Assembly: GCA_020632445.1 (NCBI GenBank)
Contig: JACKFN010000002.1
Location: forward strand, 105,360 to 169,359
Source: Candidatus Nomurabacteria bacterium
Lineage (GTDB): Bacteria; Patescibacteriota; Patescibacteriia; Magasanikbacterales; UBA922
DNA: 64,000 bases
Reading direction: 5' to 3'
The translations under genes and the position numbers were made by a program. Shown here piece by piece: positions 9,221 to 64,000 of this stretch (the first letter of the stretch is position 1; each line of letters begins with the position of its first letter). Under the pieces are notes generated by a model. The model ran no database searches. It had not been told where the DNA came from and saw only the letters and a program-made list of their open reading frames with translations.

Positions 9221-9232
9221 GTTATTTTATAG

Positions 9233-10366: not shown

Positions 10367-10375
10367 AATTTTTTC

Positions 10376-11479: not shown

Positions 11480-11485
11480 AGCCTA

Positions 11486-39548: not shown

Positions 39549-40295
39549 ATGGTTCAATTTTCCAACACCCAAGTTCCACAGGAATTTCAATCTTCACGCG
39601 CCGGTAGCTTTTGGCTGCTTCCATCGGTACTCCTGGTCGCAGCACTACTGATTGCTCTGTTTGCCTTTTTCTTTTTTGAAGCCAAAACAAACAGAATCAA
39701 ACAAAACGCCGAGCAACTCTCTTCTCAAGCATATTCTCCCTCTGCAGCTCTTGCCAATACCGCAGATATCAAAAAAATACAAACAAAAAAACTCATCAGA
39801 CCATTTAATCCAACCCTCGGAAACTCGAATGCAGATGTCGTCATCCTGGCATTTATTGACTTTGAATGCCCATACTGCGCTCAAAGTTATCCCATATTTG
39901 AAAGGGTGGTTAAAAAATATGGAGACGCTATTTTTGTAGTCTTTAAAAACCTCCCACTTGATGACATACATCCAGATGCCAGGCGTTCTGCCCTTGCCGC
40001 CATGTGCGCTCATGACCAAAATCAATTCTGGCCCTATTATCGATCTCTTTTTTCTACCAGACAACTCCTGACCGAACACTTGGTAAGCCAAGCGAGGTCA
40101 CTCAAACTCAATACCGAATCTTTTACAACCTGCCTCACAGAAAAAACACATGACCAAAATATCCAAAGGGACATTGCTGACGCCATAAGCGTAGGAGCTC
40201 AAGGGACACCAACATATATCGTCAATGGTGCGAAAATTTCAGGAATTCTTTCTGAACAAGATTGGGATCAAATCATCCTTTCATTCCTCAAATAA
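39549..40295 (+). CDS. DsbA-family thiol:disulfide oxidoreductase with an N-terminal membrane anchor
   Basis: The TM is LLPSVLLVAALLIALFAFFFF. The thioredoxin fold carries the CPYC active site, within FIDFECPYCAQSYPIFERVVKKYGDAIFVVFKNLPL. Confidence 0.75.
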   Translation: MVQFSNTQVPQEFQSSRAGSFWLLPSVLLVAALLIALFAFFFFEAKTNRIKQNAEQLSSQAYSPSAALANTADIKKIQTKKLIRPFNPTLGNSNADVVILAFIDFECPYCAQSYPIFERVVKKYGDAIFVVFKNLPLDDIHPDARRSALAAMCAHDQNQFWPYYRSLFSTRQLLTEHLVSQARSLKLNTESFTTCLTEKTHDQNIQRDIADAISVGAQGTPTYIVNGAKISGILSEQDWDQIILSFLK

Positions 40296-40296
40296 T

Positions 40297-48347: not shown

Positions 48348-48420
48348 TGCGCCTGGGTGGGTTTGAACCACCGACCCCAACGTTATAAGCGTTGTGCTCT
48401 AACCCCTGAGCTACAGGCAC
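48348..48420 (-). tRNA. tRNA with predicted anticodon UAU (tRNA-Ile, AUA-decoding)
   Basis: Manual cloverleaf gives acceptor GTGCCTG/CAGGCGC (T2-G71 wobble), D-arm GCTC-AGGGGTTA-GAGC, anticodon stem CAACG/CGTTG with loop CTTATAA (U33, anticodon TAT, A37), variable loop GGGTC, T-arm GGTGG-TTCAAAC-CCACC, and discriminator A. A terminator hairpin lies at 48315-48338. Confidence 0.8.
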
Positions 48421-49991: not shown

Positions 49992-50133
49992 ATTTTTTTC
50001 AAAAAACTTTGTAGTGCTTCAAAAAAAGTTATACACAGTTTTTTCCTGCAAACTCTTAAAAAAATTTGCAAAAAAACATATAATGTATGTAGGTCGATTG
50101 CATACTTTTTTTTTACAAAAAGTTTTGCATAAC

Positions 50134-50162
50134 GTTTTACATCCATGCTTGTCATGTAAAAC
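50134..50162. promoter_or_regulatory. 9 bp inverted repeat GTTTTACAT-N11-ATGTAAAAC in the 5' leader of the H1-like gene, downstream of TATAAT at 50079-50084
   Basis: A perfect inverted repeat read from the sequence. It lies about 70 nt upstream of the strong RBS AAAGGAGG. Confidence 0.3.
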
Positions 50163-50230
50163 ATTTCAAGTTGGTGTGTGCCTAGGTCACATCAAATACA
50201 ACATAACCTCAAACGAAAGGAGGTGTCACT

Positions 50231-50599
50231 ATGCCAGCAAGAAAAAGAGCTACCAAAAAAAGCAGTGCTGCTCGTAAGCCTGCTAAGCGCAAAGCTGCTC
50301 CTAAGAAAAAGGCTACTGCAAAGCGTAAGCCTGCTAAGCGCAAAGCTGCTCCAAAGAAAAAGGCTGCTGCAAAGCGTAAGCCTGCTAAGCGCAAAGCTGC
50401 TCCAAAGAAAAAGGCTGCTGCAAAGCGTAAGCCTGCTAAGCGCAAAGCTGCTCCAAAGAAAAAGGCTGCTGCAAAGCGTAAGCCTGCTAAGCGCAAAGCT
50501 GCTCCAAAGAAAAAGGCTGCTGCAAAGCGTAAGCCTGCTAAGCGCAAAGCTGCTGCAAAGCGTCCTGCTCGAAGAAGATCAACTTCAAAGAAGAAATAA
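50231..50599 (+). CDS. Histone H1-like, lysine/alanine-rich DNA-binding protein built of tandem 17 aa repeats
   Basis: 122 aa, pI strongly basic. It has five-plus copies of KPAKRKAAPKKKAAAKR. The RBS is AAAGGAGGTG and a terminator follows. The protein resembles Hc1/AlgP/BpH1-type bacterial H1-like proteins in composition. Confidence 0.7.
   Translation: MPARKRATKKSSAARKPAKRKAAPKKKATAKRKPAKRKAAPKKKAAAKRKPAKRKAAPKKKAAAKRKPAKRKAAPKKKAAAKRKPAKRKAAPKKKAAAKRKPAKRKAAAKRPARRRSTSKKK
50276..50562 (+). repeat. 51 bp tandem DNA repeat: 5 full copies plus a diverged 6th
   Basis: Units start at 50276, 50327, 50378, 50429, 50480 and 50531. Copies 2-5 are essentially identical, and the first differs at a few sites. 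The repeat encodes the 17 aa protein repeat. Confidence 0.85.
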
Positions 50600-50611
50600 A
50601 TTTTTCTTCAT

Positions 50612-50640
50612 CACAAAAAGAGGCCAAAAGCCTCTTTTTG
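50612..50640. terminator. Bidirectional terminator between the H1-like gene (+) and the PHP-domain gene (-)
   Basis: AAAGAGGC-caaaa-GCCTCTTTTT. Confidence 0.55.
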
Positions 50641-50655
50641 CTTTGGGAACTTTTT

Positions 50656-51960
50656 TTATAGATTCATTCCAAGCTGCTTTGCCCGTCCCCGCTGCTGAGC
50701 ACTTTGAAAAACTTTTACCACTCCAAACTCCCCATCATACCCTGGTTGGATATAAATATCTCCTTCTCTTACCTTTTGAATTGCATTGGCAACTTCTTTG
50801 GATGAATACTTTTCTATCTCTTTTACATCACCATGAATAAGTACACTAAACTCACTTCCCATCTTTTCAATTAACCCATCATATATTTTCTTGACGGCCT
50901 TGCTTGATACACCAACTTGAATGGTGTCGGAAATAATTTCTGGGAGTGGAACAATACTTTTAAATGGAATTCGCTCAAACTGGTTGGCACTACCGTGTGG
51001 CCGTGACGCAAGCTCCTGTACCCTGTTGAGCACACCTACAACAAGTTTCTTCTTGCACTTTGGACATATTCCTTTGAGCCTCTTTGTTTGCTCTGGCTCA
51101 CACCAAAAACCACAATCCCTATGTCCATCGCAATGATATTTTCCTTCTTCTGGATAAAATTCTATGGTATACAAAAATTCGCTTTTCTTTGCTTCCCGGA
51201 TGATCTGCATAATCCTCAAATATGTAATATCAAGCTCACTTTGAAAGGAAAACACATTTGCTTCCCTACCTAATTTCTGTGGACTGTGCGCATCAGAGTT
51301 TGACACCAAAGTAATCTTATCCAAAAAATCACACTGCCAATTCATCAGAGGGTCACTAGAGAGTCCGGTTTCGATAGCAAAAATGTGTGGTGTCAAATCT
51401 TCAAAAGCCTCTTCGAGAGAATCATATCCACTTTTTGAACCAAAAATACCAAACCATGGCGTCCATACATGTGCAGGTATCATCACCATACGCTCATCAA
51501 CATCAAGCATTAACTCTAAGAGTGCTTTGCTGGTAATACCCAGTATGGGACGTCCGTCAGCATACAAGTTAAACCCCATGTCAGCTAGCTTCTGATTAAA
51601 CTTTTCTGCAACCGATATACTTGGAGCAAAAACAAGATGGTGAACTCTCCGAGTTGCTCCCTTATCTTTTTTGATAACCGAAACTTCTGTACCCAAAAGA
51701 AACTTCGTTTGATGATTTCGCAGGATAGAAAACTCTTGATCGTTTTTCACTTCTTCTTTTAATACAAAAACACCCTCTGAATGCTCCACCAAACTTTCCT
51801 GAATATGTTCAAACCACTTTGGGTGCGTAAAATCACCGGTCACTACAATATCGATTCCGCGTATAGCACAACTACGTGCAATTTCTGGAAGCTCAAGATG
51901 CTTGGAGCATGCCCGAGAGTACTTTGAATGAATATGGAGGTCAAGAATTTGTTGGATCAT
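50656..51960 (-). CDS. PHP-domain protein with a central C4 zinc ribbon. Its architecture resembles endonuclease Q / the TIGR00375 family.
   Basis: 434 aa. The N-terminus is LDLHIHSKYS (PHP motif I), with further His/Asp PHP motifs. The zinc-ribbon region reads YHCDGHRDCGFWC...GICPKCKKKL. Confidence 0.5.
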   Translation of the reverse strand: MIQQILDLHIHSKYSRACSKHLELPEIARSCAIRGIDIVVTGDFTHPKWFEHIQESLVEHSEGVFVLKEEVKNDQEFSILRNHQTKFLLGTEVSVIKKDKGATRRVHHLVFAPSISVAEKFNQKLADMGFNLYADGRPILGITSKALLELMLDVDERMVMIPAHVWTPWFGIFGSKSGYDSLEEAFEDLTPHIFAIETGLSSDPLMNWQCDFLDKITLVSNSDAHSPQKLGREANVFSFQSELDITYLRIMQIIREAKKSEFLYTIEFYPEEGKYHCDGHRDCGFWCEPEQTKRLKGICPKCKKKLVVGVLNRVQELASRPHGSANQFERIPFKSIVPLPEIISDTIQVGVSSKAVKKIYDGLIEKMGSEFSVLIHGDVKEIEKYSSKEVANAIQKVREGDIYIQPGYDGEFGVVKVFQSAQQRGRAKQLGMNL

Positions 51961-52781
51961 ACATCTTTAGATTTCGACTTATCTTGTGCTCCATTCCAGG
52001 CAAGATCAAAAAGGAGCTTCATCATACCATGAATCGTAGGATCTTCAATAATCACCCCAATAAGACCCTTTTCATCAAAATTCACAAGTGAAATTCTGTT
52101 CCGGTCATAAATGGTGAGCTCTGCAGAAAAAGTAAACTTTTCTTTTTCTATAAAACGTACCTGCGGCCAAATTTTTTTGTCAACATGATTGTACACGGTC
52201 TTGCCATAGTCTATACCAAATTGTGTCATTGGTAAAATACCCTTCGCCGTCACTCCATTTTTCGCTTTTTCCCGTACATAATCACGCAAAAATTCTTTGG
52301 GGAGAAACTGCATCAAATTTTCTATCTGAGAAAATCCATACATCTCATACTTCTGCTTCCCTGCGACATGATCGTCATACACCTGCATTACCCCCTCACG
52401 CCCTTCATAAAAAATTACCTTTGGTTTATTTGGAGTAAGAGTAAACAACCCCTCAAGTTCTGGAATAAGTCGCTGCGCTTGCTCAACACCCTCTCTTGCC
52501 ATCCTCATTCTTCCCTTTGCATACCGGACAAGTTTTTCCGGCCTTTCGAGCTGATAAAAGATCTTTTTTTTCTTCTCAAGCTCTGTAACGAGCCCCTTGA
52601 TAGCCAATCGCTCAAGCAAAGCATACACCGTACTTCTGTTGAGGGAGCAGTGCTTTGCGATCTTTGAAGGATACGCTCCTCCCAAATCATAAAGAGCGCA
52701 GTATACGAGCGCTTCTTTGCGAGAAAGCCCCGCCTTTTCAAGTTGTGTTTGGAGTCTAAGGTTCCCACTCACAATTTCCAT
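51957..52781 (-). CDS. TrmB-family transcriptional regulator (paralog of the gene at the left edge)
   Basis: The wHTH reads SRKEALVYCALYDLGGAYPSKIAKHCSLNRSTVYALLERLAIKGLV. A C-terminal effector domain is present. Its start overlaps the PHP gene stop. Confidence 0.6.
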   Translation of the reverse strand: MEIVSGNLRLQTQLEKAGLSRKEALVYCALYDLGGAYPSKIAKHCSLNRSTVYALLERLAIKGLVTELEKKKKIFYQLERPEKLVRYAKGRMRMAREGVEQAQRLIPELEGLFTLTPNKPKVIFYEGREGVMQVYDDHVAGKQKYEMYGFSQIENLMQFLPKEFLRDYVREKAKNGVTAKGILPMTQFGIDYGKTVYNHVDKKIWPQVRFIEKEKFTFSAELTIYDRNRISLVNFDEKGLIGVIIEDPTIHGMMKLLFDLAWNGAQDKSKSKDV

Positions 52782-52971
52782 ATTGTTTTGCTTTTTCTAC
52801 TATACCATTTCTTTATTTTTTGTCAATTTATACGAACACTTTTTTATTATTAAGCTTTTTTTGTTTGTTTTTAGTTAAATTTTAGTACTTTTTTTGTTAA
52901 CTACCACAAACGTTTTATGAAATCATATATTCTACGATGAACTCACCAAATGTATTCATTCATACTTCTTT

Positions 52972-54099
52972 ATGAAAAAACTTATATTTTCAATGGCCGC
53001 AATCACCCTACTCGCCACTGGATGCTCGTCGCAAAACGCATCACACACAAAAGATGTCCCATCGGTCATAAAAATTGGATTCATTGGACCACTCTCTGGT
53101 GACGCAGCGAGTTATGGCGTCCCTTCAAAGGATGCCATTGAGCTTGCCAAGCAAGAGATTAACGAAACTGGTGGCATCAACGGTTCAACACTGGAAATCG
53201 TTTACGAAGATGGAAAGTGTGATGGAAAAGGAGCCTCTGCAGCCATCCGAAAACTCATTGATATTGATAAAGTTCAATATATTATTGGCGGTTTTTGTAG
53301 TGGAGAAACCTTAGCGGCAGCACCAGTTGCCGAGCAAAATAAAGTAATACTTTTTTCTTCGTCATCGGGAAGCCCTGACATTACCCATGCAGGAGACTTT
53401 ATCTTTCGAAACTTCCCGTCTGATGCCAGTTCTGCTACCAAGCTTGCAAAGCTTGCCAAAGAAAAGGGAATGCTCCGTGTTGCCACTCTTACAGAAATTA
53501 CTGATTATGCCCAGGCCTTTACACGCACCTTTTCACAAACCTTTGAAAAACTTGGTGGTTCGCTGGTTACACGGCAAGAATATGAGAGCTCTTCAAAAGA
53601 TTTTCGATCGCAACTTACCAAGGTAAAGGCCAGTGACGCAGATGCCATCTTAGTTATCGCGCAGACTCCAGAAGAGTTTGCCCTTATACTCAAACAAATA
53701 AAAGAAATAGGAATTGACCTCCCACTTCTTTCCAATGAATTTTTGGTATCTGACATGGTCAAAGAAAGTAGCTCACTCGTGCAAGAAGGATACTATGCAG
53801 AGCCACTCTTTGATGAGACAAGGCCAGCGACAAAGGCATACATGGACAAATACCAAGCAGCCTACCAAAGCCACGGATCTCTTCCTCCCGTCTATATTGC
53901 AACAGCCTACGATGCCGTCTATATTGCAAAAGAAGCAATTGAGGCTTCAGGCCTTAACACGGAAAAAATTCGAGACTACCTTTATAGCATAAAAAATCGC
54001 GAAGGCGCGGCAGGAACGCTTTCCATTGATGCCAATGGAGATGCTGAATTCCAATATGTAGTAAAAGAAATTCGAAATGGAGTGGTGCAAGACCTCTAG
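52972..54099 (+). CDS. ABC-transporter substrate-binding lipoprotein, branched-chain amino acid (LivJ/LivK-like) family
   Basis: The lipobox is LLATGC. IKIGFIGPLSGDAASYGVPSKDAIELAKQEINETGGINGSTLEIVYEDGKCD matches Peripla_BP_6. No permease or ATPase genes are adjacent. Confidence 0.8.
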   Translation: MKKLIFSMAAITLLATGCSSQNASHTKDVPSVIKIGFIGPLSGDAASYGVPSKDAIELAKQEINETGGINGSTLEIVYEDGKCDGKGASAAIRKLIDIDKVQYIIGGFCSGETLAAAPVAEQNKVILFSSSSGSPDITHAGDFIFRNFPSDASSATKLAKLAKEKGMLRVATLTEITDYAQAFTRTFSQTFEKLGGSLVTRQEYESSSKDFRSQLTKVKASDADAILVIAQTPEEFALILKQIKEIGIDLPLLSNEFLVSDMVKESSSLVQEGYYAEPLFDETRPATKAYMDKYQAAYQSHGSLPPVYIATAYDAVYIAKEAIEASGLNTEKIRDYLYSIKNREGAAGTLSIDANGDAEFQYVVKEIRNGVVQDL

Positions 54100-54110
54100 A
54101 AATCTCCTAC

Positions 54111-54142
54111 AAAGAACCGAGTAGCTCCTCGGTTCTTTTATT
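54111..54142. terminator. Bidirectional rho-independent terminator
   Basis: GAACCGAG-tagctc-CTCGGTTCTTTTATTTCTTT. Confidence 0.5.
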
Positions 54143-55385
54143 TCTTTGTCGGGGAAAATACTTGATATATAACAATTACTACAAAAACTGTAAACAAATA
54201 TATCTGGTAACCGAATGCAAATGCAGCCCCATTGATAGGCTCGTAAACTCCAAAAGAACATACGGCTGCAAAAAAAATCGCCATCAGACAAAGACAGAGT
54301 TTGGACAAAAAATCGTAACGATCCTTTTTGTGTTTCCACTGACGAACAATATGCCGTATTTCCTTTATAAAAAGCTTCCACAGGAGAAAACAAACCTTTC
54401 CCAGTATTGGCCATACGAGTATCAAAGGCAGCGCAAAAAGACGAGCTTCTTGTGCCTTTGCAGCCCAAAATACAAACGTCGTGTTGATAATCACTGATAA
54501 TACAAAAGCAAACAATAGACGCTGTACTTGCTTTTTTAGGTGAAAATGGCGGGAAAATGCGCGCAGCATGGCAAGCGGCAATCCCAAAACGACAAAGAAG
54601 CTCACTAAAGACTCCAAGGTATGTGCCCCATCCTGAAAATTGAACATCCAGTGCCGAAACCTTTCATCAGACATATATTCCCAAGCGACTGTACCGTAAT
54701 CGCTGTGCACACTGAACCAATATATGGCACCAAGGTATGCTCCCGTTGCCAAAAGCATTGCAAAAACACTTCTGACAAATACAATATCCGTAAATGCATG
54801 CTTTTTATTTGGCATGAGAAAAAATACAAACCCAGGGATGAGCAAGACACTCGTTTCACGTGCAAAAAGGGCCAGAAAAAAAGAGACAGAAAACCCTATC
54901 CACCATCTTTTCATAGCACACAAAAGCGTCAGCAAAAGAAACAAATACTGAAATGGCTCGTCGTAGGAGTAAATAGGTATGCCAAAGGCAAAGAGAATCG
55001 AAAAGCTGAGATAAAAAAATACCACCGCCAGATAGGCATTGCGATCTCTTTGCTTAAATGCCTTGGCAAGATAGAATAAAGCCATCCCACACAAAAATAA
55101 AAGCCCAAAATTTACGGCAATAAACGCATTGGCATAACTCACATCAAGTATTCTATGAACAAAATCAATGGCAAATGATGTCATCGGCCTTCGTACAAAG
55201 GCCGGGTGCTGCATGTGGTAATCATACACTTCCTGTATGAAACCATGGTTGATATTATTCTTGTAATCCCAAGGATCCACCATCCCAATATCAAGACTTA
55301 GCATGCTTGGAAAGAAATAGTGCAAGGCAAAAATGCCTAGTGTAAACGCTAGGCATAAAAAGAATGTTTTGAGCAGTGTTTTCAT
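54138..55385 (-). CDS. Polytopic integral membrane protein (~11 TM; possibly a GT-C-like glycosyltransferase or ligase, unverified)
   Basis: 415 aa, with hydrophobic helices throughout. No soluble domain. Confidence 0.4.
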   Translation of the reverse strand: MKTLLKTFFLCLAFTLGIFALHYFFPSMLSLDIGMVDPWDYKNNINHGFIQEVYDYHMQHPAFVRRPMTSFAIDFVHRILDVSYANAFIAVNFGLLFLCGMALFYLAKAFKQRDRNAYLAVVFFYLSFSILFAFGIPIYSYDEPFQYLFLLLTLLCAMKRWWIGFSVSFFLALFARETSVLLIPGFVFFLMPNKKHAFTDIVFVRSVFAMLLATGAYLGAIYWFSVHSDYGTVAWEYMSDERFRHWMFNFQDGAHTLESLVSFFVVLGLPLAMLRAFSRHFHLKKQVQRLLFAFVLSVIINTTFVFWAAKAQEARLFALPLILVWPILGKVCFLLWKLFIKEIRHIVRQWKHKKDRYDFLSKLCLCLMAIFFAAVCSFGVYEPINGAAFAFGYQIYLFTVFVVIVIYQVFSPTKK

Positions 55386-56107
55386 TTTCCACTATATTCT
55401 ATGTCTTCTTCACTCAGTCGACGAATCCCAGCGTCCGAGTGTTTTTCTTCTATAACGTGCGCAAGAAGTCCTGGGACTCGTCCAATAATAAAGATAGCAT
55501 CTCCCTGATCTGGCGTAAAGCCCATGTCACACAAAATGGCAGCAATAACCCCATCAATGTTAAAAGGAAGTGGCTTTGATGATATTGCACTCAGCTCGCC
55601 TTGGACTTGTTTGGCGAACTGACTATACTTTCCTAAAACACCGTTTTCTTGCGCAATGGCAAAAAGCGTTTCGCTGCGTGGATCTCTATCCGTGAATACC
55701 TTGTGGCCAAAACCTGGTACACGAATCTTTTGTTCTTTGAGACTCAAAAGAAGTTGTTTCAAATTCTTTGTGGATTCATTTTCAAGAAAAAACTGCATGG
55801 CCATCCCAGTGGCAAGTCCATGCCTTTGACCAAAACCAAGTAACCCCGCTGCAAGGGATGCATTGAGAGGGTTTTTGGCTGACACGGATACACGGGCATT
55901 GAGCGCCGAAGTATTTACGCTATGATCAATTGAACTTATCAAAAGCGCATCCATCATTCGTCCCTCACTCTCGTTTGGGAGTCTTCCCTGCAAAATATGG
56001 AAAACCGATTGTGCAAAAGAATGCCCCTTTACCAGCGTTTCCAAAGCAATGCCACGGATATACTCTCCGTCTTCACGAATGTCGGTTATACTTGTTTGAA
56101 ATTTCAT
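55382..56107 (-). CDS. Truncated citrate-synthase-fold protein (citryl-CoA lyase / ATP-citrate-lyase C-domain-like)
   Basis: VPGFGHKVFTDRDPRSE matches the citrate synthase signature G-F-G-H-x-V-Y-x-x-x-D-P-R. PLPFNIDGVIAAIL matches the catalytic-Asp region (NVDFYSG). It is only ~242 aa, covering the small domain and the C-terminal half of citrate synthase. The start was chosen at MKFQTSITDI (ATG 56105-56107). Confidence 0.6.
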   Translation of the reverse strand: MKFQTSITDIREDGEYIRGIALETLVKGHSFAQSVFHILQGRLPNESEGRMMDALLISSIDHSVNTSALNARVSVSAKNPLNASLAAGLLGFGQRHGLATGMAMQFFLENESTKNLKQLLLSLKEQKIRVPGFGHKVFTDRDPRSETLFAIAQENGVLGKYSQFAKQVQGELSAISSKPLPFNIDGVIAAILCDMGFTPDQGDAIFIIGRVPGLLAHVIEEKHSDAGIRRLSEEDIEYSGK

Positions 56108-56108
56108 A

Positions 56109-56618
56109 TTACAAAAACATTTCCATAAAATAATCATCGTAAAATTTTCCATCAATAAGCATTTCCTTTTCAAGCGTACACAGTACACTAAACCCAAGCT
56201 TCTTATAAAAAGCAACAGCCCTTTCATTTTCTTTATTCACCAAAAGTTGTAGCTTGAGTACACCAGCTTCCTTGAGCTTATCCGTCAAAAACTCAAAAAG
56301 CCGCTTTGAAATTCCTTTCCCCCTATATTCGGTTTCTACAAAGACTGCCTTAAGATGTGCGACATGCCTTAACCTCGGAAGTGCGTCAATATACGCTCCC
56401 ATGAATCCCACAACTTTTTCACCTTCCATAGCAAAATATTGCCACGACGTTTCTTCTAACCAATTCTTTTCCAAACTTTGACGCCACTGCTCCTCACTAC
56501 GCTCCTTTTCAAGCTCATAGCTACTTCCAAAAGCAATTGGCTCAACCTGAAGAGATTTGAGACGAATGTCTTTAAAAAGTTCCCATTGATCTGGATGAAG
56601 TTTTATTATTTCAATCAT
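56109..56618 (-). CDS. GNAT-family N-acetyltransferase
   Basis: It carries VVGFMGAY...VFVETEYRGKGISKRLFEFL...AFYKKLGF (motifs A and B). Confidence 0.75.
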   Translation of the reverse strand: MIEIIKLHPDQWELFKDIRLKSLQVEPIAFGSSYELEKERSEEQWRQSLEKNWLEETSWQYFAMEGEKVVGFMGAYIDALPRLRHVAHLKAVFVETEYRGKGISKRLFEFLTDKLKEAGVLKLQLLVNKENERAVAFYKKLGFSVLCTLEKEMLIDGKFYDDYFMEMFL

Positions 56619-56626
56619 ACCATTTT

Positions 56627-57523
56627 TTATGCATATGGCTGTACTAACTCTACCAAATGTTCATAGGTTTGTGCAATCATGACTCCTGCAGCCTTGAGGG
56701 CAGCTTCTTTTTCAGCAGCGCCTTTCCCACGCTCAACAATTGCCCCGGCATGACCGATATTTACTCCCTCAGGAAGACTGTTAGCAAACTTTCCCCCCAC
56801 AAAAACCGCGAGCGGCTTGGTAAATCCTTTATCACGAACCAAGTCAGCAATCTCAAACTCATAACTCCCACCATGCTCACCAAAAATAATCACTGCCTTA
56901 GTCTGCGTATCTTTTTCAAATTCTTTCAAAATATCTGCATAGGTCGTCCCCATCAAAAGATCCCCACCTACGTGCACCGCACTGCTTTGTCCCATCCCCG
57001 CCCTACGAACCTGCCAAGAGAGTTCATTCGTCATTCCACCAGATCGAGATATAATTCCAATCGAACCTGGCATAAAAATCTCATCTGCTTGATCTTTAGG
57101 TCCTCCAATAACCCCCACACGAGCCTGACCTGGATTGATAAATCCAAGTGAGCTCGGCCCAATAATCCTGGCGCCTCGCTCTTTGGCAGCAGATAGACAA
57201 TAGGCCGTATCCTTGATGGGTACTCGCTCAATAATGGGATTGATGATCTTTACTCCTGCTTCTATAGCTTCCATCATTGCCTCTCTTGCAGCAAATGGCG
57301 GCACATAAATAGCACTAACATCAACGGGTCCAAGCCTGTCCACCAGATCCTGCACTGTGTGAAATACAGGCTTGCCTTCCACAAACTCACCAGCCTTGCC
57401 TGGACGTGTTCCACCAATGACATTGCTTCCATACTCAAGCATAGCCGTCGTCGCACTTTGCCCTTCTTTTCCAGTAATACCTTGTACAATAATCTTTGAG
57501 CTTTTATCAACGAATATTCCCAT
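56627..57523 (-). CDS. Succinyl-CoA synthetase alpha-subunit-like CoA-binding / phospho-His subunit
   Basis: The N-terminus is KIIVQGITGKEG. It also carries IISRSGGMTNE and the phospho-His motif GHAGAIV. Confidence 0.85.
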   Translation of the reverse strand: MGIFVDKSSKIIVQGITGKEGQSATTAMLEYGSNVIGGTRPGKAGEFVEGKPVFHTVQDLVDRLGPVDVSAIYVPPFAAREAMMEAIEAGVKIINPIIERVPIKDTAYCLSAAKERGARIIGPSSLGFINPGQARVGVIGGPKDQADEIFMPGSIGIISRSGGMTNELSWQVRRAGMGQSSAVHVGGDLLMGTTYADILKEFEKDTQTKAVIIFGEHGGSYEFEIADLVRDKGFTKPLAVFVGGKFANSLPEGVNIGHAGAIVERGKGAAEKEAALKAAGVMIAQTYEHLVELVQPYA

Positions 57524-57524
57524 A

Positions 57525-58019
57525 CTACAAGTATCTCTTTAAATCATTAAAAATAGCCCCTTCCGGACAGCTACCACCTACAATAGCACGTGCCATAAAT
57601 CTGTCCTTCTCAACATTTTCTTCATCTCCAATATTTTCAAAGTAACGACCATTTACAAGCACGTCCGCGGCCTTGAGTGCAAGTGCCTCATGACTGTGCG
57701 CTCTACAGGCTTCAATGATGTCTTCGTTTTTACTATACCAATCTTTTGGCCCATCGTCCTTGGTTACCAAACGTACGTATTCGACAACCTGTTTGCCAAA
57801 TAACGCCATTACCTCCTGATCAGAAACTGTCGTTTCCTCAAAAATATCATGCAGAAATCCTGCCACCACCACATCAGCGCTGTACCCATACCGTATGAGC
57901 TCGTAGCCAACATCGAGCGTATGAAAGAGTTCACACTTATCATCATCTTGTACATTTTGATACCGTTCAAAGACAAAAATAATGGCTTCTTGATATTTTT
58001 TGTACATCTCATTACTCAT
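57525..58019 (-). CDS. HD-domain phosphohydrolase (YfbR-like)
   Basis: It carries ELFHTLDVG and VVAGFLHDIFEET. Confidence 0.6.
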   Translation of the reverse strand: MSNEMYKKYQEAIIFVFERYQNVQDDDKCELFHTLDVGYELIRYGYSADVVVAGFLHDIFEETTVSDQEVMALFGKQVVEYVRLVTKDDGPKDWYSKNEDIIEACRAHSHEALALKAADVLVNGRYFENIGDEENVEKDRFMARAIVGGSCPEGAIFNDLKRYL

Positions 58020-59167
58020 ATTTGTTTATTAATCATATCTGCAAGCACCTTCGCGGTATCGCCCATGCTTGTTTCTTTTCCAAAAAGTTTTATATTCAAA
58101 TTATTACGCTTTCCACATTCACGCATAAGCTCCATCCCCTCTTTTTCATTTGGCCCGGCACGTCTTACGACTATTGGATATGTTGGCTTCATCTCATCAA
58201 ACGCATCCACAATGCCCGCAAAGGTATCTCTGACATTGGTGAAATTGGCCACCACACCACAGAGCCACAATCCACGTAGTCCCGGTTTGGAAAGTACAAT
58301 TTTAGTAAGCTCATACACCTTTTCTCGTGGAGGATTGCCTGAATACTCCGTGTAATTGGCAGGTTTAAGCCCTACATCTGCCAAGGCGTCCATATTGGCA
58401 ATGCTAGCTCCTCCACCATTGAGGATAAGCCCAACATCACCGTCCATTTCAATATATTTTCCTGCAGTTCCTTGATAGTATTTTTCACCCCTATCAATTT
58501 CTTGGACCTGAACCTCGCGATCAGTAGGTGGACGTCCCATCATGGTTCGTGGTTCAAAATCTTCCCACTCCTGGTGTCGGAAAAATGCATCGTCGTCGAG
58601 TGCAATTTTGGCATCGGCGGCAATAAACTCTCCTGTTTTGGTTTTGATAAGTGGATTCACTTCAACGACACGACAATCCTGCTGCAAAAAACAATTCCAA
58701 AGCTCTTCGGCAAAAGGAATGTCCAAACCTAACACCTCACTCTTGATATCAAGATAGTACTTCTCAATTTTTTCTTCTGGAACGTCTTCGATATCCATGC
58801 CCCCATCTTTGCTATACACCAATATTGGAGTTTTTGCGTTGGTATCATAGGTGATCGAAAGATACTGTTCCTCATCAATATCAACTTTTTCTTCCACACG
58901 AACATACGCGACGTGCTGCCCTCTGACCTCCATAGCAAAAATTTCTTGAACCGCTTTTTCAAATTCATCAAATCCACTACACAAACGAATCGCACCATTT
59001 TTTCCACGCTTTCCAATCAGTACCTGCGCTTTTACCACCACCTCGTCACATCTTAGCGCTTCATACTTTTGCAATAAATTTTCTCCACGTTTGACTTGAA
59101 AACCTCTTGGTACTTTGATGCCATATGTTTCAAGCATGTGTTTTCCCTCAAACTCGTATAAATTCAT
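58016..59167 (-). CDS. Succinyl-CoA synthetase beta-subunit-like ATP-grasp subunit
   Basis: The N-terminus MNLYEFEGKHMLETYGIKVP resembles SucC (MNLHEYQAKQLFARYGLP). It also carries VVKAQVLIGKRGKNG and DVGLILNGGGASIANMD. Confidence 0.8.
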   Translation of the reverse strand: MNLYEFEGKHMLETYGIKVPRGFQVKRGENLLQKYEALRCDEVVVKAQVLIGKRGKNGAIRLCSGFDEFEKAVQEIFAMEVRGQHVAYVRVEEKVDIDEEQYLSITYDTNAKTPILVYSKDGGMDIEDVPEEKIEKYYLDIKSEVLGLDIPFAEELWNCFLQQDCRVVEVNPLIKTKTGEFIAADAKIALDDDAFFRHQEWEDFEPRTMMGRPPTDREVQVQEIDRGEKYYQGTAGKYIEMDGDVGLILNGGGASIANMDALADVGLKPANYTEYSGNPPREKVYELTKIVLSKPGLRGLWLCGVVANFTNVRDTFAGIVDAFDEMKPTYPIVVRRAGPNEKEGMELMRECGKRNNLNIKLFGKETSMGDTAKVLADMINKQI

Positions 59168-59877
59168 ATTACACTTGCCACCTTTAAAAAATTTTTAAAC
59201 AATTTCTCCCCTGTCCTTATGTGTACATCTTTTACTTCCTGAAACTCAGCGCGCAGCTGACCTGCATCCATTTTGCTAAGTTCTGGATGTTCCCGCAGCC
59301 ATTTTTCAAAAATGTCTTCATTAATTTCAAAATGACATTGCATGCCATAAGCACTATTTCCAATTTTTACAGCCTGATTACTGCAATGATCTCCAGTAGC
59401 AAGCACCTTCATATGTTCTACCAGCTCTACGGTGTCTTCATGAAGCTGGAAAAAATGCAATGGACTTTCGAGTCCGTCAAAAATCGGATCTTGCTTACCT
59501 TCCTTTGTCAGCGTAAGCGTGTACAAATTGCCATTTTTGCATTTCAAACCAATCTCTTTATCATAAAATGGAACCACAGCTCCACCAGCAGCCTTAACAA
59601 GCACTTGCAGACCAAGACAAATGCCTAAATACGGCTTGTCCTGCATAATCCATTTTTTTATGGTTGCAATTTGACTTTGCATTTTGGCGGTTTCATCGTT
59701 CGCGCTATCGTATCCACCCAAAACAATCATAGCGCTATACTCCTCGAGTTCTGGAATTTCTTCACCGTTATTCAAGTCCACCTTTGTATAGGGGACATCC
59801 CGATTTTCGAGCCAATCAAACACAAATCCTGGACGCTCACGAGTAACATTTTGCAACACAAGCACTGTTTTATCCAT
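59164..59877 (-). CDS. Class I glutamine amidotransferase domain protein
   Basis: The nucleophile elbow is LGICLGLQ. His/Glu are present in CHFEINED. Confidence 0.7.
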   Translation of the reverse strand: MDKTVLVLQNVTRERPGFVFDWLENRDVPYTKVDLNNGEEIPELEEYSAMIVLGGYDSANDETAKMQSQIATIKKWIMQDKPYLGICLGLQVLVKAAGGAVVPFYDKEIGLKCKNGNLYTLTLTKEGKQDPIFDGLESPLHFFQLHEDTVELVEHMKVLATGDHCSNQAVKIGNSAYGMQCHFEINEDIFEKWLREHPELSKMDAGQLRAEFQEVKDVHIRTGEKLFKNFLKVASVI

Positions 59878-60235
59878 ATGATTCTTGCAAAGATGGTGAA
59901 TTTTTCAGATCAATCCGAAACTCTTTTCCCCAATCCTGCATACCAATTGATGTATACCAACCATGGACATGATCCTTGCCGTAGCGACTATTTGCAACCA
60001 ATTTGTAGCAACCAAGTTCCTTGGCCTTTTCCATAACGGCTTGCACCAAACTCTTTCCATACCCTTTTCCCCTGTGTTCTAACTCAACGTACACATTTTC
60101 AAGCAAGCCATATGGTTCTTTGTGCTTATTATTTTGAATAACGACCAAAAACGCAAACCCCACTTTTTGACCATTTTTTTCAATAAAAAACTCAAGAGCA
60201 TAAGTGTCACTTCGTTTTGTAAATGCTAGACTCAT
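59870..60235 (-). CDS. GNAT-family N-acetyltransferase
   Basis: It carries VYVELEHRGKGYGKSLVQAVMEKAKELG. Confidence 0.75.
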   Translation of the reverse strand: MSLAFTKRSDTYALEFFIEKNGQKVGFAFLVVIQNNKHKEPYGLLENVYVELEHRGKGYGKSLVQAVMEKAKELGCYKLVANSRYGKDHVHGWYTSIGMQDWGKEFRIDLKNSPSLQESYG

Positions 60236-60240
60236 AGTCC

Positions 60241-60753
60241 TTATATTCTTTTTTCTGCCTCCCTTAAAATAGCTAAATCACGAAGCCGAACATACTTTCC
60301 GATGTAATCCCTGGGATCATCAGCCTCCATGCGGTCAGTCGCGTCACCAAGCGTCATCCACTTGAGCTCAAAACCGTCCTCAATTTCTTCCTGGGTAAAC
60401 TCTACATTCTGTAATGGACCGCTTACCGCTGCCAAGTACGCATACGAAATTTGAATTTGCTCATACCGATCTCTATACTCAATAGTTATGCCGAGGGACT
60501 CTCCGATTTCTACAGGAGCACCAGCTTCCTCAAGCAGCTCACGTACAAGTGCCCTATGAATTTCTTCATCTCCCTCAAGTCCTCCACCAGGAAGCTTGTG
60601 ATACTTATGTTTGGTTACTGCCAAAACAGCTATTCTCTTTTCTGGATCAAAAACTACTGCACGCGCAGCCTTTCGAAGCTTGTACGGTTTGAAAAAGCTT
60701 TCTGCTTCACCCAGGCCGATAGTTTTATCACTTATTTCCTTGAGGAGTTCCAT
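60241..60753 (-). CDS. NUDIX hydrolase
   Basis: The Nudix box is GGGLEGDEEIHRALVRELLEEAGA. Confidence 0.8.
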   Translation of the reverse strand: MELLKEISDKTIGLGEAESFFKPYKLRKAARAVVFDPEKRIAVLAVTKHKYHKLPGGGLEGDEEIHRALVRELLEEAGAPVEIGESLGITIEYRDRYEQIQISYAYLAAVSGPLQNVEFTQEEIEDGFELKWMTLGDATDRMEADDPRDYIGKYVRLRDLAILREAEKRI

Positions 60754-61159
60754 ACAATTGATTTCTAAACTTTTTTGAAGACATCATGAAAATGATAATA
60801 AGTGGCAAAATAGCTGGAAGCTCCCCTTGGCCAAGCGCAGAGACTATCATAAGCGCCCAAACTATCATTGCCACCACATACCAGTTTTTTTGTCTCTTTT
60901 GCAGCGCCAGCAAACTCAAAACGCATGCAATCAAAGCAAAAAATACAGGACCTGATACTTCACCAGCCCGCACAAATGCTTCATCATAGTTTAGCCCCTC
61001 TTCAATAAACCCAGCTCGATATCCCTGCCAAAAAGGATGCAAACCCTGTGTATCTGCTCCTGCAAGCCAAATCACTATGCCAAGAAACAGCACAGACAAA
61101 ACAAGTTCGAGCTGAATCAATCTTTTTGTCCAGGTAAAAAATTTGCTTTTCATATGCAT
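60728..61159 (-). CDS. Hypothetical membrane protein
   Basis: 143 aa with four hydrophobic helices. It overlaps the NUDIX ORF, so the start of either may differ. Confidence 0.35.
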   Translation of the reverse strand: MHMKSKFFTWTKRLIQLELVLSVLFLGIVIWLAGADTQGLHPFWQGYRAGFIEEGLNYDEAFVRAGEVSGPVFFALIACVLSLLALQKRQKNWYVVAMIVWALMIVSALGQGELPAILPLIIIFMMSSKKFRNQLYGTPQGNK

Positions 61160-61173
61160 ATTGATGAATTATC

Positions 61174-62151
61174 TCATTTCATTATATCACAGAGCACTCT
61201 GCCAAGTTTTTGTCCATCATGACGAACAAGACTCCGTAGCAAAGTATCACCATGATCTTTTTTAACAACTTCATCTGCGACCACATCAGCTCTAACAACG
61301 ACATACTTGTCCTCCTGCAAATCATCTTTTGTTGGTTTGCGTCCCATCTCGATGTATTTTTCAAGTGCATACACCGGAAAATCTCCTTTGTGTGCCACAA
61401 CCACATCGGGCATCCTTCCAGAATATTGCTCGATGACATCCACCATTTCTGTCAGCCCCATGTCATCAGTCTGACCATGTTTTTCAATGAGGTTAGTGAT
61501 AAAAATAAACTTCCCTGTTGACTCCACGATGGCCTGCGGAATCCCATCAATGACGATATTAGCGATAGTAGTCGTATAGAGATCTCCCGGACCTGCAATG
61601 ATGTAATCAGCATCCACAATAGCCTGAACTGCCTTGTCATGCGCTTTGGCGAGTGGCTCTAACCGAAGCGACGATATCTTTCGACTCCCATCATGCTGTG
61701 GTTCATCGATCAAATGTTCACTCTTTATCTCAGTTCCATCCATATACTTGGCGACAAGCTGCGTTTGATCAAGAGTGACAGGAATTACCTTCCCTTTGAG
61801 TGAAAAAAGCTCAGAAAGTGCATCGATGGCATCTACTTCTCCCCCGCGAAGATCACACAGTGCCATCATAATGAGGTTTCCAAGCGTGTGACCAGAAAGA
61901 CCATCTCCTTTTGCAAATCTATACGTAAAAAGTTGTCGCAAAGTGTCGTTTCCTTCGCTCGCAAGTGCAATAATAGATTTTCGCAAATCAGAAAGTGGTA
62001 AAAGGCCAAATTCATCTCGAACTATGGCATTGCTTCCACCGTCATCGGTCATACTCACGATCACAGAAAGATCAATATCAACTCGATCTTTGAGCCCAGA
62101 CAAAACGGCAATCGTTCCTGTTCCGCCACCTATGACAACAACTTTTTTCAT
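61174..62151 (-). CDS. YvcK/CofD-like (UPF0052, gluconeogenesis factor family) protein
   Basis: It carries VVVIGGGTGTIAVLSGL and SMTDDGGSNAIVR. The start was chosen at MKKVVVIGGG, which overlaps the upstream stop as ATGA. Confidence 0.75.
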   Translation of the reverse strand: MKKVVVIGGGTGTIAVLSGLKDRVDIDLSVIVSMTDDGGSNAIVRDEFGLLPLSDLRKSIIALASEGNDTLRQLFTYRFAKGDGLSGHTLGNLIMMALCDLRGGEVDAIDALSELFSLKGKVIPVTLDQTQLVAKYMDGTEIKSEHLIDEPQHDGSRKISSLRLEPLAKAHDKAVQAIVDADYIIAGPGDLYTTTIANIVIDGIPQAIVESTGKFIFITNLIEKHGQTDDMGLTEMVDVIEQYSGRMPDVVVAHKGDFPVYALEKYIEMGRKPTKDDLQEDKYVVVRADVVADEVVKKDHGDTLLRSLVRHDGQKLGRVLCDIMK

Positions 62152-62582
62152 AACAATTCTATTATCTGCTCTAAACCCTGAACTACCTGTATTTCTTGTG
62201 GAAACCGCACTCCAAAAATACCCACAAAATCCATATTGGCATATCGCGCAGCATCGCAATCACTAATCGAATCTCCAACGACCAAACACTCACTTGATTC
62301 TAGCTGCAAGTATGTTGCGCAGAGCAAAAAAATTTCAGGTGCTGGCTTGGCCATGTACTCCACATCATCAATTCCCACAATCACATCTACCATCTCTTGC
62401 AAGCCATATTGCTCTGCGTATGAAAGAACTGTTTGGTGCTTCAGGTTAGAACCTATGGCCGCACTGATCCCTTTGTTCTTAATATACTCCAACACCCTTT
62501 TTGACTCTACAAAGTCAACATCCAACACTCCTTGAAAATCAAAAATGATTGCTTTGTACTTGCTTTGCATCGTTTTTTGCAT
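62148..62582 (-). CDS. Short HAD-superfamily hydrolase-like protein (capless)
   Basis: Motif I-like is AIIFDFQGVL (second Asp replaced) and motif IV is LVVGDSISD. It is only 144 aa. Confidence 0.45.
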   Translation of the reverse strand: MQKTMQSKYKAIIFDFQGVLDVDFVESKRVLEYIKNKGISAAIGSNLKHQTVLSYAEQYGLQEMVDVIVGIDDVEYMAKPAPEIFLLCATYLQLESSECLVVGDSISDCDAARYANMDFVGIFGVRFPQEIQVVQGLEQIIELL

Positions 62583-62722
62583 ATCTTCTAATTGTGTGTT
62601 TCGCGATTCCGGTAAACTTTAGTCTGTGGCTACAGATGACCATACTCCAAAGGTCGCGGTGATCAGAATCAAGCGACTTTGTGGCATAGTCATCTGCAGC
62701 CAATAGAATCCTAGACCGATAG

Positions 62723-64000
62723 TTATTCCACCGTAACACTCTTCGCCAAATTCCTTGGTCGATCAACATCTCTCCCCAGCCCGACCGCAACATAGTAGGC
62801 AAAAAGCTGAGTTGGGAGTGTATTGAGAAGCGGTTCAAGGAGTTCCATAGTAGGTGGAACGTAGATAATATCATCAGCAAGCTCTTTTGCACGGTCATCG
62901 CCCTGGGTCGCGATCATCACGATCGGCCCCTTTCTTGCACGAACTTCTTCGATGTTGCTACGCATTTTTTCATAAAGTTGATTCTTAGTCATGATGGCGA
63001 ACGTTGGAAATTCAGGGCTTATAAGCGCCAGCGGTCCATGCTTCATTTCTCCACCAGGATAACTTTCCGCATGTATGTAGCTTATTTCCTTGAGTTTTAA
63101 AGATCCCTCAAGTGCCACAGGGAAATTAATTCCCCTTCCCAAGAATAAAAAGTCCTTTGAGTTTTTGTATTTTTCAGCAATTGCTTTGATCGTTTCCTTT
63201 TGTGACAAAATAGCATTCATTTTTTCTGGAATTTCCAAGAGCGCTTCAATCAATCTCTTTCCCGTGGCAACACTCACCCTCCTTGCCCTTCCGAACTGTA
63301 TGGCATACAACAAAGATACGGCAATCATGTTGGTATATGCCTTGGTAGATGCCACCGCAAGCTCCGGACCTGCATGGATATAGGTCCCACCGTCGGTTTC
63401 GCGAGCAATCGTCGAACCAATGACATTTACAATACCGCGAACATGTGCACCTTTTCGTTTTGCTTCTCGAAGCGCGGCAAGGGTGTCTGCAGTTTCACCA
63501 GATTGTGAAATTACAAAAACAAGTGTCTTGTCATCAACAACAGGATCTTTATAACGAAATTCACTAGCCACTTCTACTTCTGCCGGAATCCCCACCAATC
63601 GTTCAAAAGCATACTTTCCTACCATTCCAGCGTAGCTTGCCGTACCACAGGCAATAAAAATTACACGGTTAATCTCTCGCATTTGCTGCTCACTCATGCC
63701 AAGTCCTCCCAAAATGGCTGTTCCGTTTTCCAGGTCGAACCGACCACGAATGGCGTCTTCAAACACGGTAGGCTGGTCATGAATTTCTTTGAGCATAAAA
63801 TGGTCATAGCCCTGTTTTTCTGCCTGCTGCTCATCCCAATCAATATTTTCTACGACCTTTGAAATGGATTTGCTTTGTAAATTAAACAAACGAACATTTC
63901 CAGAAGTTACCTCTGCGATCTCACCATCCTCGAGAAAAATCATTTGCTTGGTGTAAGGCAAAATTGGTGTTGCGTCACTAGCAATAAAATTCTCATCCTT
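62723..64000 (-). CDS. glmS: Glutamine--fructose-6-phosphate aminotransferase (isomerising). The C-terminal SIS domains are present; the N-terminal glutaminase domain lies beyond the right edge.
   Basis: It carries FIASDATPIL, DHFMLKEIHDQP, two SIS domains, and the diagnostic C-terminus LAKSVTVE. The reading frame stays open to position 64000. Confidence 0.85.
   Translation of the reverse strand, partial: KDENFIASDATPILPYTKQMIFLEDGEIAEVTSGNVRLFNLQSKSISKVVENIDWDEQQAEKQGYDHFMLKEIHDQPTVFEDAIRGRFDLENGTAILGGLGMSEQQMREINRVIFIACGTASYAGMVGKYAFERLVGIPAEVEVASEFRYKDPVVDDKTLVFVISQSGETADTLAALREAKRKGAHVRGIVNVIGSTIARETDGGTYIHAGPELAVASTKAYTNMIAVSLLYAIQFGRARRVSVATGKRLIEALLEIPEKMNAILSQKETIKAIAEKYKNSKDFLFLGRGINFPVALEGSLKLKEISYIHAESYPGGEMKHGPLALISPEFPTFAIMTKNQLYEKMRSNIEEVRARKGPIVMIATQGDDRAKELADDIIYVPPTMELLEPLLNTLPTQLFAYYVAVGLGRDVDRPRNLAKSVTVE

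Follow-up and report, generated by a model that had tools for sequence, protein, structure and literature searches.

Genes at the locus

The stretch analysed here, called the window below, is 64,000 nucleotides of contig JACKFN010000002.1 from a Candidatus Nomurabacteria bacterium, a member of the candidate phyla radiation (CPR, or Patescibacteria). It was found that its minus strand carries three genes of an unfused citrate-cleavage type, coding for a two-subunit citryl-CoA synthetase (CCS) and a citryl-CoA lyase (CCL). The ccsA-like gene (58016-59167) encodes the large (beta) subunit of 383 aa, the ccsB-like gene (56627-57523) the small (alpha) subunit of 298 aa, and the ccl gene (55382-56107) a lyase of 241 aa that starts with MKFQ. 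Two other genes are placed among them: a gene for an HD-domain protein of 164 aa (57525-58019) sits between ccsA and ccsB, and a gene for a GNAT acetyltransferase of 169 aa (56109-56618; Pfam Acetyltransf_1, 6e-19) sits between ccsB and ccl. A first-pass annotation, made from the letters alone, had described five minus-strand open reading frames (ORFs) at this place, and all five were found. The large subunit is 100% identical to the NCBI entry "hypothetical protein H6758_01880" of the same organism, and the lyase is identical to the NCBI entry "citryl-CoA lyase [Candidatus Nomurabacteria bacterium]". Identical proteins in the same arrangement are present in two independent public assemblies, and the G+C content of the five-ORF block equals that of the rest of the window.

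The block (55382-59167) is part of a longer minus-strand operon, which runs from glmS (beyond 63961) to 54138. Its genes overlap by 4-8 nucleotides (nt) or are separated by gaps of 1-8 nt. Besides the ccsA, ccsB and ccl genes, this operon contains hexosamine genes upstream of ccsA, and it is the combination of the two that is analysed below.

Family assignment of the synthetase and the lyase

The large subunit consists of an ATP-grasp domain (ATP-grasp_2, PF08442, 1e-38) followed by the citrate-binding domain of ATP-citrate lyase (ACL) (Citrate_bind, PF16114, 7e-32). Unlike SucC, the beta subunit of succinyl-CoA synthetase (SCS), it has no Pfam match to Ligase_CoA in its C-terminal part. Its best solved relative is CcsA of Hydrogenobacter thermophilus (6hxq_B, 230 bits, E 4e-67), as compared with 163 bits for SCS-beta and 160 bits for Chlorobium AclB, and it misses the cut-off of the SucC equivalog model of NCBIfam (243.7 versus 370 bits). 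The SCS motifs FGGITRC and VRLxGTN are replaced by motifs of the VANFTNV and RRxGP types. The motifs NGGGAS (residues 250-255), YSGNPP (275-280, within ANYTEYSGNPP), ANFTNV (307-312) and VRRAGPN (334-340) were found in common with the ACLs of Chlorobium and Methanosaeta in alignments (ANFTDV and VRRGGPN in the latter two positions). The CcsA proteins of Aquificae share RR-GP with the large subunit, but have ANNT in place of ANFT. The citrate loop and the Arg motif belong to domain 5 of ACL and were read against the citrate contacts of human ACLY. Residues K46, R54, E107, E197, N199 and D213 of Escherichia coli SucC, the nucleotide and Mg ligands, correspond to K46, R54, E100, E169, N171 and D185 of the large subunit, and all are conserved.

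A phylogeny against SucCD, CcsAB and AclAB, which the first-pass annotation had named as a check, was run for the large subunit as a neighbour-joining tree. Besides the window protein, the tree comprised four references, five CPR homologues and 132 representatives of clusters at 50% identity. All members of the clade in which the window protein falls carry RRxGP; ANFT is present in 58 representative clusters and in two ACL references. In a 54-taxon subset, a clade of CCS and ACL sequences including the window protein was recovered in 85 of 100 bootstraps, and the window protein did not group with SucC. In the same subset, 80 of 100 bootstraps placed it with the AclB references and left Aquificae CcsA outside. 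The placement of the CPR branch within this clade differs between the two approaches, pairwise scores favouring Aquificae CcsA and the tree favouring the clade that contains AclB. Relatives at 63-71% identity are numerous and are labelled Magasanikbacteria, Uhrbacteria, Patescibacteria and similar; among the names given to homologues by the Joint Genome Institute (JGI), some are "citryl-CoA synthetase large subunit" and others "succinyl-CoA synthetase beta subunit".

The small subunit combines a CoA-binding Rossmann domain with phospho-His domains (Pfam CoA_binding PF02629, Ligase_CoA PF00549 and PF13607). The GHAGA phospho-His motif noticed in the first reading lies at residues 257-261 (His258), and GEHGG at residues 215-219. 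Two insertions, GGPKDQADEIF and FANSLPEGV (the latter just before GHAGA), occur in the small subunit as well as in H. thermophilus CcsB (6hxq_A), and SCS-alpha lacks them. Like its partner, the small subunit misses the NCBIfam cut-off of its SCS counterpart SucD (276.9 versus 336 bits). An ADP-forming acetyl-CoA synthetase was also considered as a candidate and was rejected (66 versus a cut-off of 567).

The lyase passed the curated citryl-CoA lyase model NF004869 of NCBIfam (253.9 bits versus a cut-off of 212), while citrate synthase models gave at most 94 bits against cut-offs of 330-620. It had been described as a protein of about 242 aa that retains the citrate synthase signature and the catalytic Asp, but only the C-terminal half of the fold. 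The protein, the signature and the Asp (D185) stand, with the length set to 241 aa by the MKFQ start. The half fold does not. Residues 5-241 align end to end with residues 6-246 of the H. thermophilus citryl-CoA lyase (6hxp_A, PDB 6HXP, 2e-51), and the alignment with E. coli citrate synthase GltA covers about residues 52-102 as well as about 219-427, so that what is missing relative to GltA is the N-terminal ~50 and an internal ~115 residues. The lyase has the normal full-length architecture of CCL and is not a truncated citrate synthase, nor is it the pseudogene fragment of one that the earlier reading had named as its possible undoing. The sequence GFGHKVFTDRDPR lies at residues 132-144. When compared with E. 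coli GltA, H62, H96, H135, R144, D185, F206 and R210 match seven of the eight active-site residues of citrate synthase listed in PMC13147460. The eighth, R407, is unmatched and is aligned with E233.

Taken together, the Citrate_bind domain, the best match to CcsA and the passing of NF004869 bear out the reading as CcsAB plus Ccl. The first-pass annotation had left the choice between this and a split ACL. The layout is that of CCS and CCL as separate proteins; a fusion of the AclA type is excluded, since the alpha subunit has only 298 aa and the lyase is separate.

Conservation of the gene order

Is the linkage of the three genes common among relatives? The window proteins were mapped by tblastn onto 80 metagenome loci with 53-70% identity, which are the closest of the relatives found at this identity in at least 513 metagenome stretches. 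In every locus with at least 5 kb downstream of ccsA (37 of 37), ccsB and ccl were found on the strand of ccsA. In L007 (Uhrbacteria) and L008, two further related loci, ccsA, ccsB and ccl are contiguous. Upstream of ccsA, 33 loci have at least 5 kb, and there, on the same strand, a YvcK (CofD-family) gene is present in all 33, a GlmS gene in 32 and a gene for a small GNAT in 31. The conserved operon order is GlmS, YvcK/GlmR, small GNAT, CcsA, CcsB and Ccl, the citrate-cleavage trio forming the 3′ end.

Inserts of more than 300 nt lie between these genes in about a third of the loci, and the inserts differ (LemA plus TPM, an IS200-like element, CopG, or unknown genes). Across the loci, the identity to the window copies is about 37% for YvcK, 45% for the small GNAT and 50% for Ccl.

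The surroundings of the trio were also searched for other genes of the tricarboxylic acid (TCA) cycle. When practically every ORF of at least 120 aa in the 64-kb window was scanned with Pfam, no other TCA gene was found, as the first-pass annotation had stated, and likewise none was found in the 10-kb flanks of L007-L009. The companions expected of a reductive TCA (rTCA) cycle, namely 2-oxoglutarate:ferredoxin oxidoreductase, fumarate reductase, aconitase and isocitrate dehydrogenase, were absent from the same window and flanks.

Hexosamine genes upstream of ccsA

In the window, the 3′ part of glmS, the gene of glutamine--fructose-6-phosphate transaminase, is cut by the window end (62723-64000, minus strand). 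It matches positions 200-601 of the 601 positions of model NF001484 with 517.7 bits (cut-off 381). The yvcK/glmR-type gene for a UDP-N-acetylglucosamine (UDP-GlcNAc)-binding protein (61174-62151, minus) passed model TIGR01826 (253.2 versus 196 bits); its ORF is listed to 62259, and translation probably begins at 62151 with MKKVVVIGGG. In Bacillus, GlmR (the protein earlier called YvcK) is a factor for the production of peptidoglycan precursors (PMC13046274). The small GNAT gene (59870-60235, minus, 121 aa), usually the next gene upstream of ccsA, encodes a candidate sugar-phosphate N-acetyltransferase resembling GNA1.

For the GlmU-like gene of the cluster, the match to GlmU is confined to the N-terminal half, the uridylyltransferase (positions 3-242 of about 450). 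Such half genes were found in 35 loci, at L007:4451-5263, at L009:113-871 and in 33 of L010-L089 (for example L011:3939-4685), in stop-to-stop frames of 251-302 codons. The C-terminal acetyltransferase half of E. coli GlmU found matches in only four loci (L016, L019, L048 and L079; three distinct sequences). These four are stand-alone acetyltransferases of 210-234 aa that match the C-terminal half of the archaeal type of GlmU (TIGR03992, positions about 208-391 of 393, 1e-50 to 1e-55). In L048 and L079 the stand-alone gene is directly upstream of ccsA, the L048 copy lying between yvcK and ccsA; in two of the four loci it fills the usual slot of the small GNAT. In L016 and L019, whose sequences are identical, it overlaps the end of ccl.

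In 61 loci the sequence reaches at least 700 nt upstream of ccsA; the small GNAT is present in 50 of them, the GlmU-C-type (LbH) acetyltransferase in four, and both together in none. This mutual exclusion suggests non-orthologous displacement, and the small GNAT probably stands in for the acetyltransferase domain that is missing from GlmU. Because the two kinds of acetyltransferase exclude each other, it is suggested that an acetyl-CoA-consuming enzyme is tied to the ccs and ccl genes.

A profile of the small-GNAT family matched GNA1 structures in the PDB, those of Trypanosoma brucei (2e-13), yeast (9e-10) and a plant (2e-9) as well as those of Aspergillus, human and worm. The predicted structure of the small GNAT (predicted local distance difference test score, pLDDT, 91.6) is a minimal GNAT. 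Unlike GNA1, it is without the N-terminal helices (about 50 residues), the cluster GNATs having about 110-120 aa. The assignment of the small GNAT as a GNA1-like candidate is inconclusive from these matches, and its displacement by GlmU-C-type acetyltransferases lends it indirect support.

Inserted genes and the rest of the window

The six-gene backbone is interrupted in the window by at least six extra genes, coding for a 143-aa membrane protein, a NUDIX hydrolase, a class-I glutamine amidotransferase, the HD-domain protein, the 169-aa GNAT and a 415-aa membrane protein. They are fitted in with gaps of 1-8 nt or overlaps of 4-8 nt; about a third of the related loci have different inserts at the same junctions. 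The HD-domain and 169-aa GNAT genes had been counted in the first reading as members of a five-gene block. However, they are not conserved with the core trio. A homologue of the HD gene was found in one of the 80 loci (L076), the ccsA-ccsB junction being occupied elsewhere by LemA plus TPM, by an IS200-like element, by CopG or by no gene at all. At the position of the 169-aa GNAT no gene was found in any of the 80 loci, and its two tblastn matches are the small GNAT upstream of ccsA. Both genes are lineage-specific, recent inserts outside the citrate system and were rejected as parts of it. The HD-domain protein is of the RelA/SpoT type (Pfam HD_4/HD, HD_4 30.9 bits) and resembles the hydrolase domain HD_4 of RelA/SpoT (TIGR00691, 5e-9, residues 32-89), and it may act as a small hydrolase of alarmones.

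Between the small GNAT and ccsA lies the class-I glutamine amidotransferase gene (59164-59877, minus, 237 aa; GATase, 2e-18), which was found in none of the 80 related loci. The NUDIX hydrolase gene (60241-60753, minus; NUDIX, 1.5e-15) was likewise found in none, and the gene of the 143-aa membrane protein (60728-61159, minus), with a weak PMT_2 match, has a counterpart in no locus but L011, the closest relative. The operon ends with the gene of the polytopic membrane protein of 415 aa (54138-55385, minus). The start of this gene and the stop of ccl overlap by 4 nt; the protein has no Pfam match and a weak NCBIfam match to "cell surface glycopolymer formation protein". It was considered as a conserved partner, for example a citrate transporter, and rejected, as it occurs in only two of the 80 loci (L011 and L056) and is unrelated (17-19% identity) to the PHP/TIGR00375-family protein encoded after ccl in other loci. 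Beyond it, an 11-bp GC-containing hairpin (54111-54138) lies between the convergent genes 52972-54099 (plus) and 54138-55385 (minus). The hairpin is only suggestive of a bidirectional terminator at the operon end, although it is a plausible one. In a promoter and terminator scan of 50000-64000, the counts were not above those of shuffled sequences.

A short HAD-like ORF of 144 aa (62148-62582, minus) lies between glmS and yvcK and matches HAD_2 (3e-19) at profile positions 82-178 only. The HAD-family gene between glmS and yvcK has 217-219 aa in L008 and L009. When aligned with these, the window ORF is without the cap region of about 75 residues and has DFQG instead of DxDG as motif I; the gene may be decaying, or it may be a variant that does without a cap. 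In many related loci, ccl is followed by a gene for a PHP/TIGR00375-family protein of about 430-470 aa (Pfam MJ0043_C; for example L007:12886-14289). The window copy (50656-51960, minus) is further downstream, after a gene for a TrmB-family regulator (51957-52781). This regulator gene is upstream of glmS in most other loci, so that a local rearrangement, also present in L011, is indicated.

Elsewhere, the window encodes lower glycolysis (GAPDH, PGK, two iPGM and enolase), tRNA synthetases, glycosyltransferases and similar proteins. The two iPGM paralogues are in tandem (29201-30775 and 30779-32404, minus) beside the genes of enolase, PGK and GAPDH, which is unusual in a reduced genome. The G+C content is 0.52 at 16001-18300 versus about 0.42 elsewhere. 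In this region, a 449-aa ORF (16858-18207, minus) is only weakly similar to the C-terminal portion of KAS III/FabH (Pfam 9e-6; PDB 2ebd, 1e-3), and a 397-aa ORF without a family (17095-18288, plus) overlaps it. A PemK/MazF-type toxin gene follows at 18397-18783 (minus; Pfam 7e-10). Large proteins of unknown function are encoded within 1603-6791 (minus) and 40225-41856 (plus): one of 812 aa without a family, one of 912 aa with DUF4012 and one of 543 aa with a weak match to a type IV secretion pilin. These proteins are found near a cluster of GT4 glycosyltransferase genes with a sugar transferase (6853-12904). The only Rfam matches in the window are the bacterial class A RNase P RNA (12996-13428, plus, 174 bits) and one tRNA (48348-48420, minus).

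Proposed reaction and alternative explanations

By homology with ACL and CCS, whose reaction steps are summarised in PMC13307392 and in the preprint 10.1101/2022.10.25.513756, the system may work as follows. The large ATP-grasp subunit would bind ATP and citrate. ATP would phosphorylate His258 of the small subunit, and the phosphate would then be passed to citrate on the citrate-binding domain of the large subunit. CoA, held by the small subunit, would attack the citryl-phosphate to give citryl-CoA, and the separate lyase, with the His/His/Asp machinery of citrate synthase, would release acetyl-CoA and oxaloacetate from citryl-CoA. Table 1 of PMC13147460 gives mildly exergonic values for the cleavage (ACL -8.0, CCS -5.9 and CCL -2.1 kJ/mol). 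The acetyl-CoA, made from citrate obtained externally, would primarily serve the neighbouring sugar-phosphate N-acetyltransferase, and the whole would form a self-contained operon for the UDP-GlcNAc precursor.

The mutual exclusion of the two acetyltransferases next to the ccs and ccl genes suggests that citrate-derived acetyl-CoA feeds the N-acetylation of amino sugars. I consider it probable that the window encodes an intact CCS/CCL citrate-cleavage system as the distal part of a UDP-GlcNAc operon, which most likely supplies acetyl-CoA from imported citrate to the adjacent N-acetyltransferase. More tentatively, with somewhat less than even confidence, this may be extended to a large clade of CPR bacteria. 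In that clade, CCS and CCL would be a dedicated in-operon generator of acetyl-CoA for cell-wall amino sugars rather than an enzyme of carbon fixation or of the TCA cycle, the acetyl group being passed to glucosamine (GlcN) phosphate by the GNA1-like GNAT or the GlmU-C-type enzyme, and the half-GlmU completing UDP-GlcNAc.

Several points weigh against this interpretation. The substrate, the direction of the reaction in this clade and the link to amino sugars are inferred, the first two from homology. The 80 loci are probably from one CPR class, so that the synteny could be partly inherited rather than selected. Neither acetyltransferase was found in seven of the 61 loci, five of which have a flank of less than 2 kb. 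The small-GNAT profile that matched GNA1 has an uncharacterised GNAT as its best match (3.5e-17), while a polyamine acetyltransferase (2e-12) and aminoglycoside acetyltransferases reach scores like those of GNA1; a Foldseek search of the PDB with the structural model returned generic GNAT matches that do not discriminate the substrate. The small subunit, whose top PDB matches are SCS-alpha chains, scores about equally against archaeal SCS-alpha (223 bits) and CcsB (209 bits). The window and the 10-kb flanks examined yielded neither a citrate transporter nor an enzyme that consumes oxaloacetate. Finally, what is said on the absence of TCA genes, of other acetyl-CoA sources and of a full-length GlmU covers the window and flanks of up to 10 kb.

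The first alternative accepts that citrate is cleaved, but regards the hexosamine neighbourhood as merely an inherited gene order, acetyl-CoA and oxaloacetate being supplied in general, for other acetylations, aspartate or phosphoenolpyruvate (PEP). The loci are all fairly close relatives, small CPR genomes can keep a stable gene order where no functional link exists, the small GNAT is not specifically assigned to GNA1, and unrelated inserts (NUDIX, GATase and HD) are also found in the window operon. On the other hand, the order has been kept despite a divergence of the neighbours to 37-50% identity and the uptake of inserts by about a third of the loci, and the junctions are 1-4 nt or overlapping. 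Moreover, where the GNAT is missing, a GlmU-C-type acetyltransferase is found directly beside ccsA or ccl, not beside glmS. A merely inherited order is judged to be rather unlikely, though the likeliest of the four alternatives.

Does the system run in the opposite direction, from acetyl-CoA and oxaloacetate via citryl-CoA to citrate, with ATP gained by substrate-level phosphorylation? In Desulfobacter postgatei, ACL reportedly acts in the citrate-forming, ATP-yielding direction. The overall reaction is near equilibrium (-8 kJ/mol; PMC13147460), and the window encodes a fermentative lower glycolysis. However, no oxaloacetate source (PEP or pyruvate carboxylase), no use of citrate and no exporter were seen in the window or flanks, and the conserved neighbours consume acetyl-CoA rather than produce it, which makes this direction improbable.

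Use of a different organic acid or acyl-CoA, such as malate, citramalate, 2-methylcitrate or itaconate, appears to be just as improbable, if not slightly more so. Many short bacterial "citryl-CoA lyase" proteins of the PRK06224 type are uncharacterised, and the lyase has E233 in place of R407. But the ANFT, RRxGP and GGGAS motifs of the ACL citrate-binding domain are kept in common with the Chlorobium and Methanosaeta enzymes, the Citrate_bind match is strong, and seven of the eight active-site residues are conserved.

The plain alternative of the first-pass annotation, an ordinary SucCD beside a citrate-synthase-like gene or pseudogene unrelated to it, is very improbable, and so is a part in a (reductive) TCA cycle. 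The SCS-alpha matches of the small subunit and the JGI label "succinyl-CoA synthetase beta subunit" on some homologues speak for SucCD, but the two subunits fall short of the SucC and SucD equivalog cut-offs by about 60-130 bits, the SCS motifs are absent, and the proteins do not group with canonical SCS. A full-length Ccl is linked to them in 37 of 37 loci, and neither the 64 kb nor the 10-kb flanks of L007-L009 hold another TCA gene.

Comparison with known systems

A system of the CCS/CCL kind was reportedly first described in H. thermophilus by Aoshima et al. in 2004 (PDB 6HXQ and 6HXP). There, as in the window, CcsA, CcsB and Ccl are encoded by three separate genes and have the same domain architecture, with sizes of 429, 353 and 268 aa versus 383, 298 and 241 aa. 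The large subunit and the lyase of the window have their highest pairwise similarity to H. thermophilus CcsA and Ccl, and the CcsB-specific indels, the phospho-His and the citrate-synthase-type catalytic residues are kept. In contrast to H. thermophilus, the host of the window is a non-autotrophic CPR bacterium with a reduced genome and no rTCA genes nearby, and the genes lie within a hexosamine operon instead of a carbon-fixation context. In addition, the large subunit is without about 25 residues in the ATP-grasp linker of H. thermophilus CcsA, and its citrate loop is ACL-like (ANFT) and not of the Aquificae type (ANNT).

The ACLs, both AclB/AclA of Chlorobium limicola (6HXJ) and Methanosaeta concilii (6HXI) and eukaryotic ACLY, presumably share the chemistry, and the motifs ANFT[DN]V, VRRxGPN, GGGAS and ANYxEYSG are shared with the window. 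As with eukaryotic ACLY, the acetyl-CoA of the window system would serve biosynthetic acetylation and not carbon fixation. Unlike in ACL (AclA of about 610 aa, the fusion forming the tetrameric core), the alpha subunit of 298 aa is not fused to the lyase of 241 aa, in the window and in all of the 37 informative loci. Thus, citryl-CoA would be released or passed between separate proteins. The SCS proteins SucC and SucD resemble the window synthetase in superfamily, in the two-subunit layout and in the mechanism with ATP-grasp and phospho-His, and the small subunit is about 45% similar to SCS-alpha of archaea and bacteria; unlike SCS genes, the synthetase genes here are always linked to a lyase gene. 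With GltA and 2-methylcitrate synthase, Ccl has in common the core of the fold and the His/His/Asp/Arg residues of the active site. The CPR cluster, with GlmS, a GNA1-like GNAT and a uridylyltransferase without an acetyltransferase domain, is comparable to the eukaryotic hexosamine pathway (GFAT/GlmS, GNA1 and UAP1); a phospho(acetyl)glucosamine mutase was not identified in the cluster.

CCS/CCL homologues in CPR are already known, from NCBI and JGI annotations and from the 2022 preprint (10.1101/2022.10.25.513756), in which CPR and DPANN sequences annotated as SCS or citrate synthase were monophyletic with CCS or CCL. One CPR study has aclAB among the genes enriched in Saccharimonadia, and a recent survey of autotrophs found CCS/CCL only in Aquificaceae and Leptospirillum. 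In the literature, no paper was found that links CCS/CCL to hexosamine genes, or that reports a truncated GlmU together with a GNAT in CPR. The hexosamine-operon context is put forward here, as a hypothesis, as the new element.

Implications for CPR bacteria

CPR bacteria are abundant and mostly uncultured, and they have a very reduced metabolism; their host-derived needs and their acetyl-CoA supply are largely unknown. A widespread clade of them keeps an intact citrate-cleavage module, with no TCA cycle in view, locked to UDP-GlcNAc genes. The unfused CCS and CCL with an ACL-like citrate loop are also a data point for the proposed evolutionary path from CCS plus CCL to ACL and citrate synthase. 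If the proposed role is true, citrate would be the acetyl source for peptidoglycan precursors, and bacteria would have, in this operon, an equivalent of the route that leads in eukaryotes from ACLY via GNA1 to UAP1. Citrate would then be a concrete metabolite that these episymbionts must take from their hosts or from the environment, and it may be a candidate growth supplement for their cultivation.

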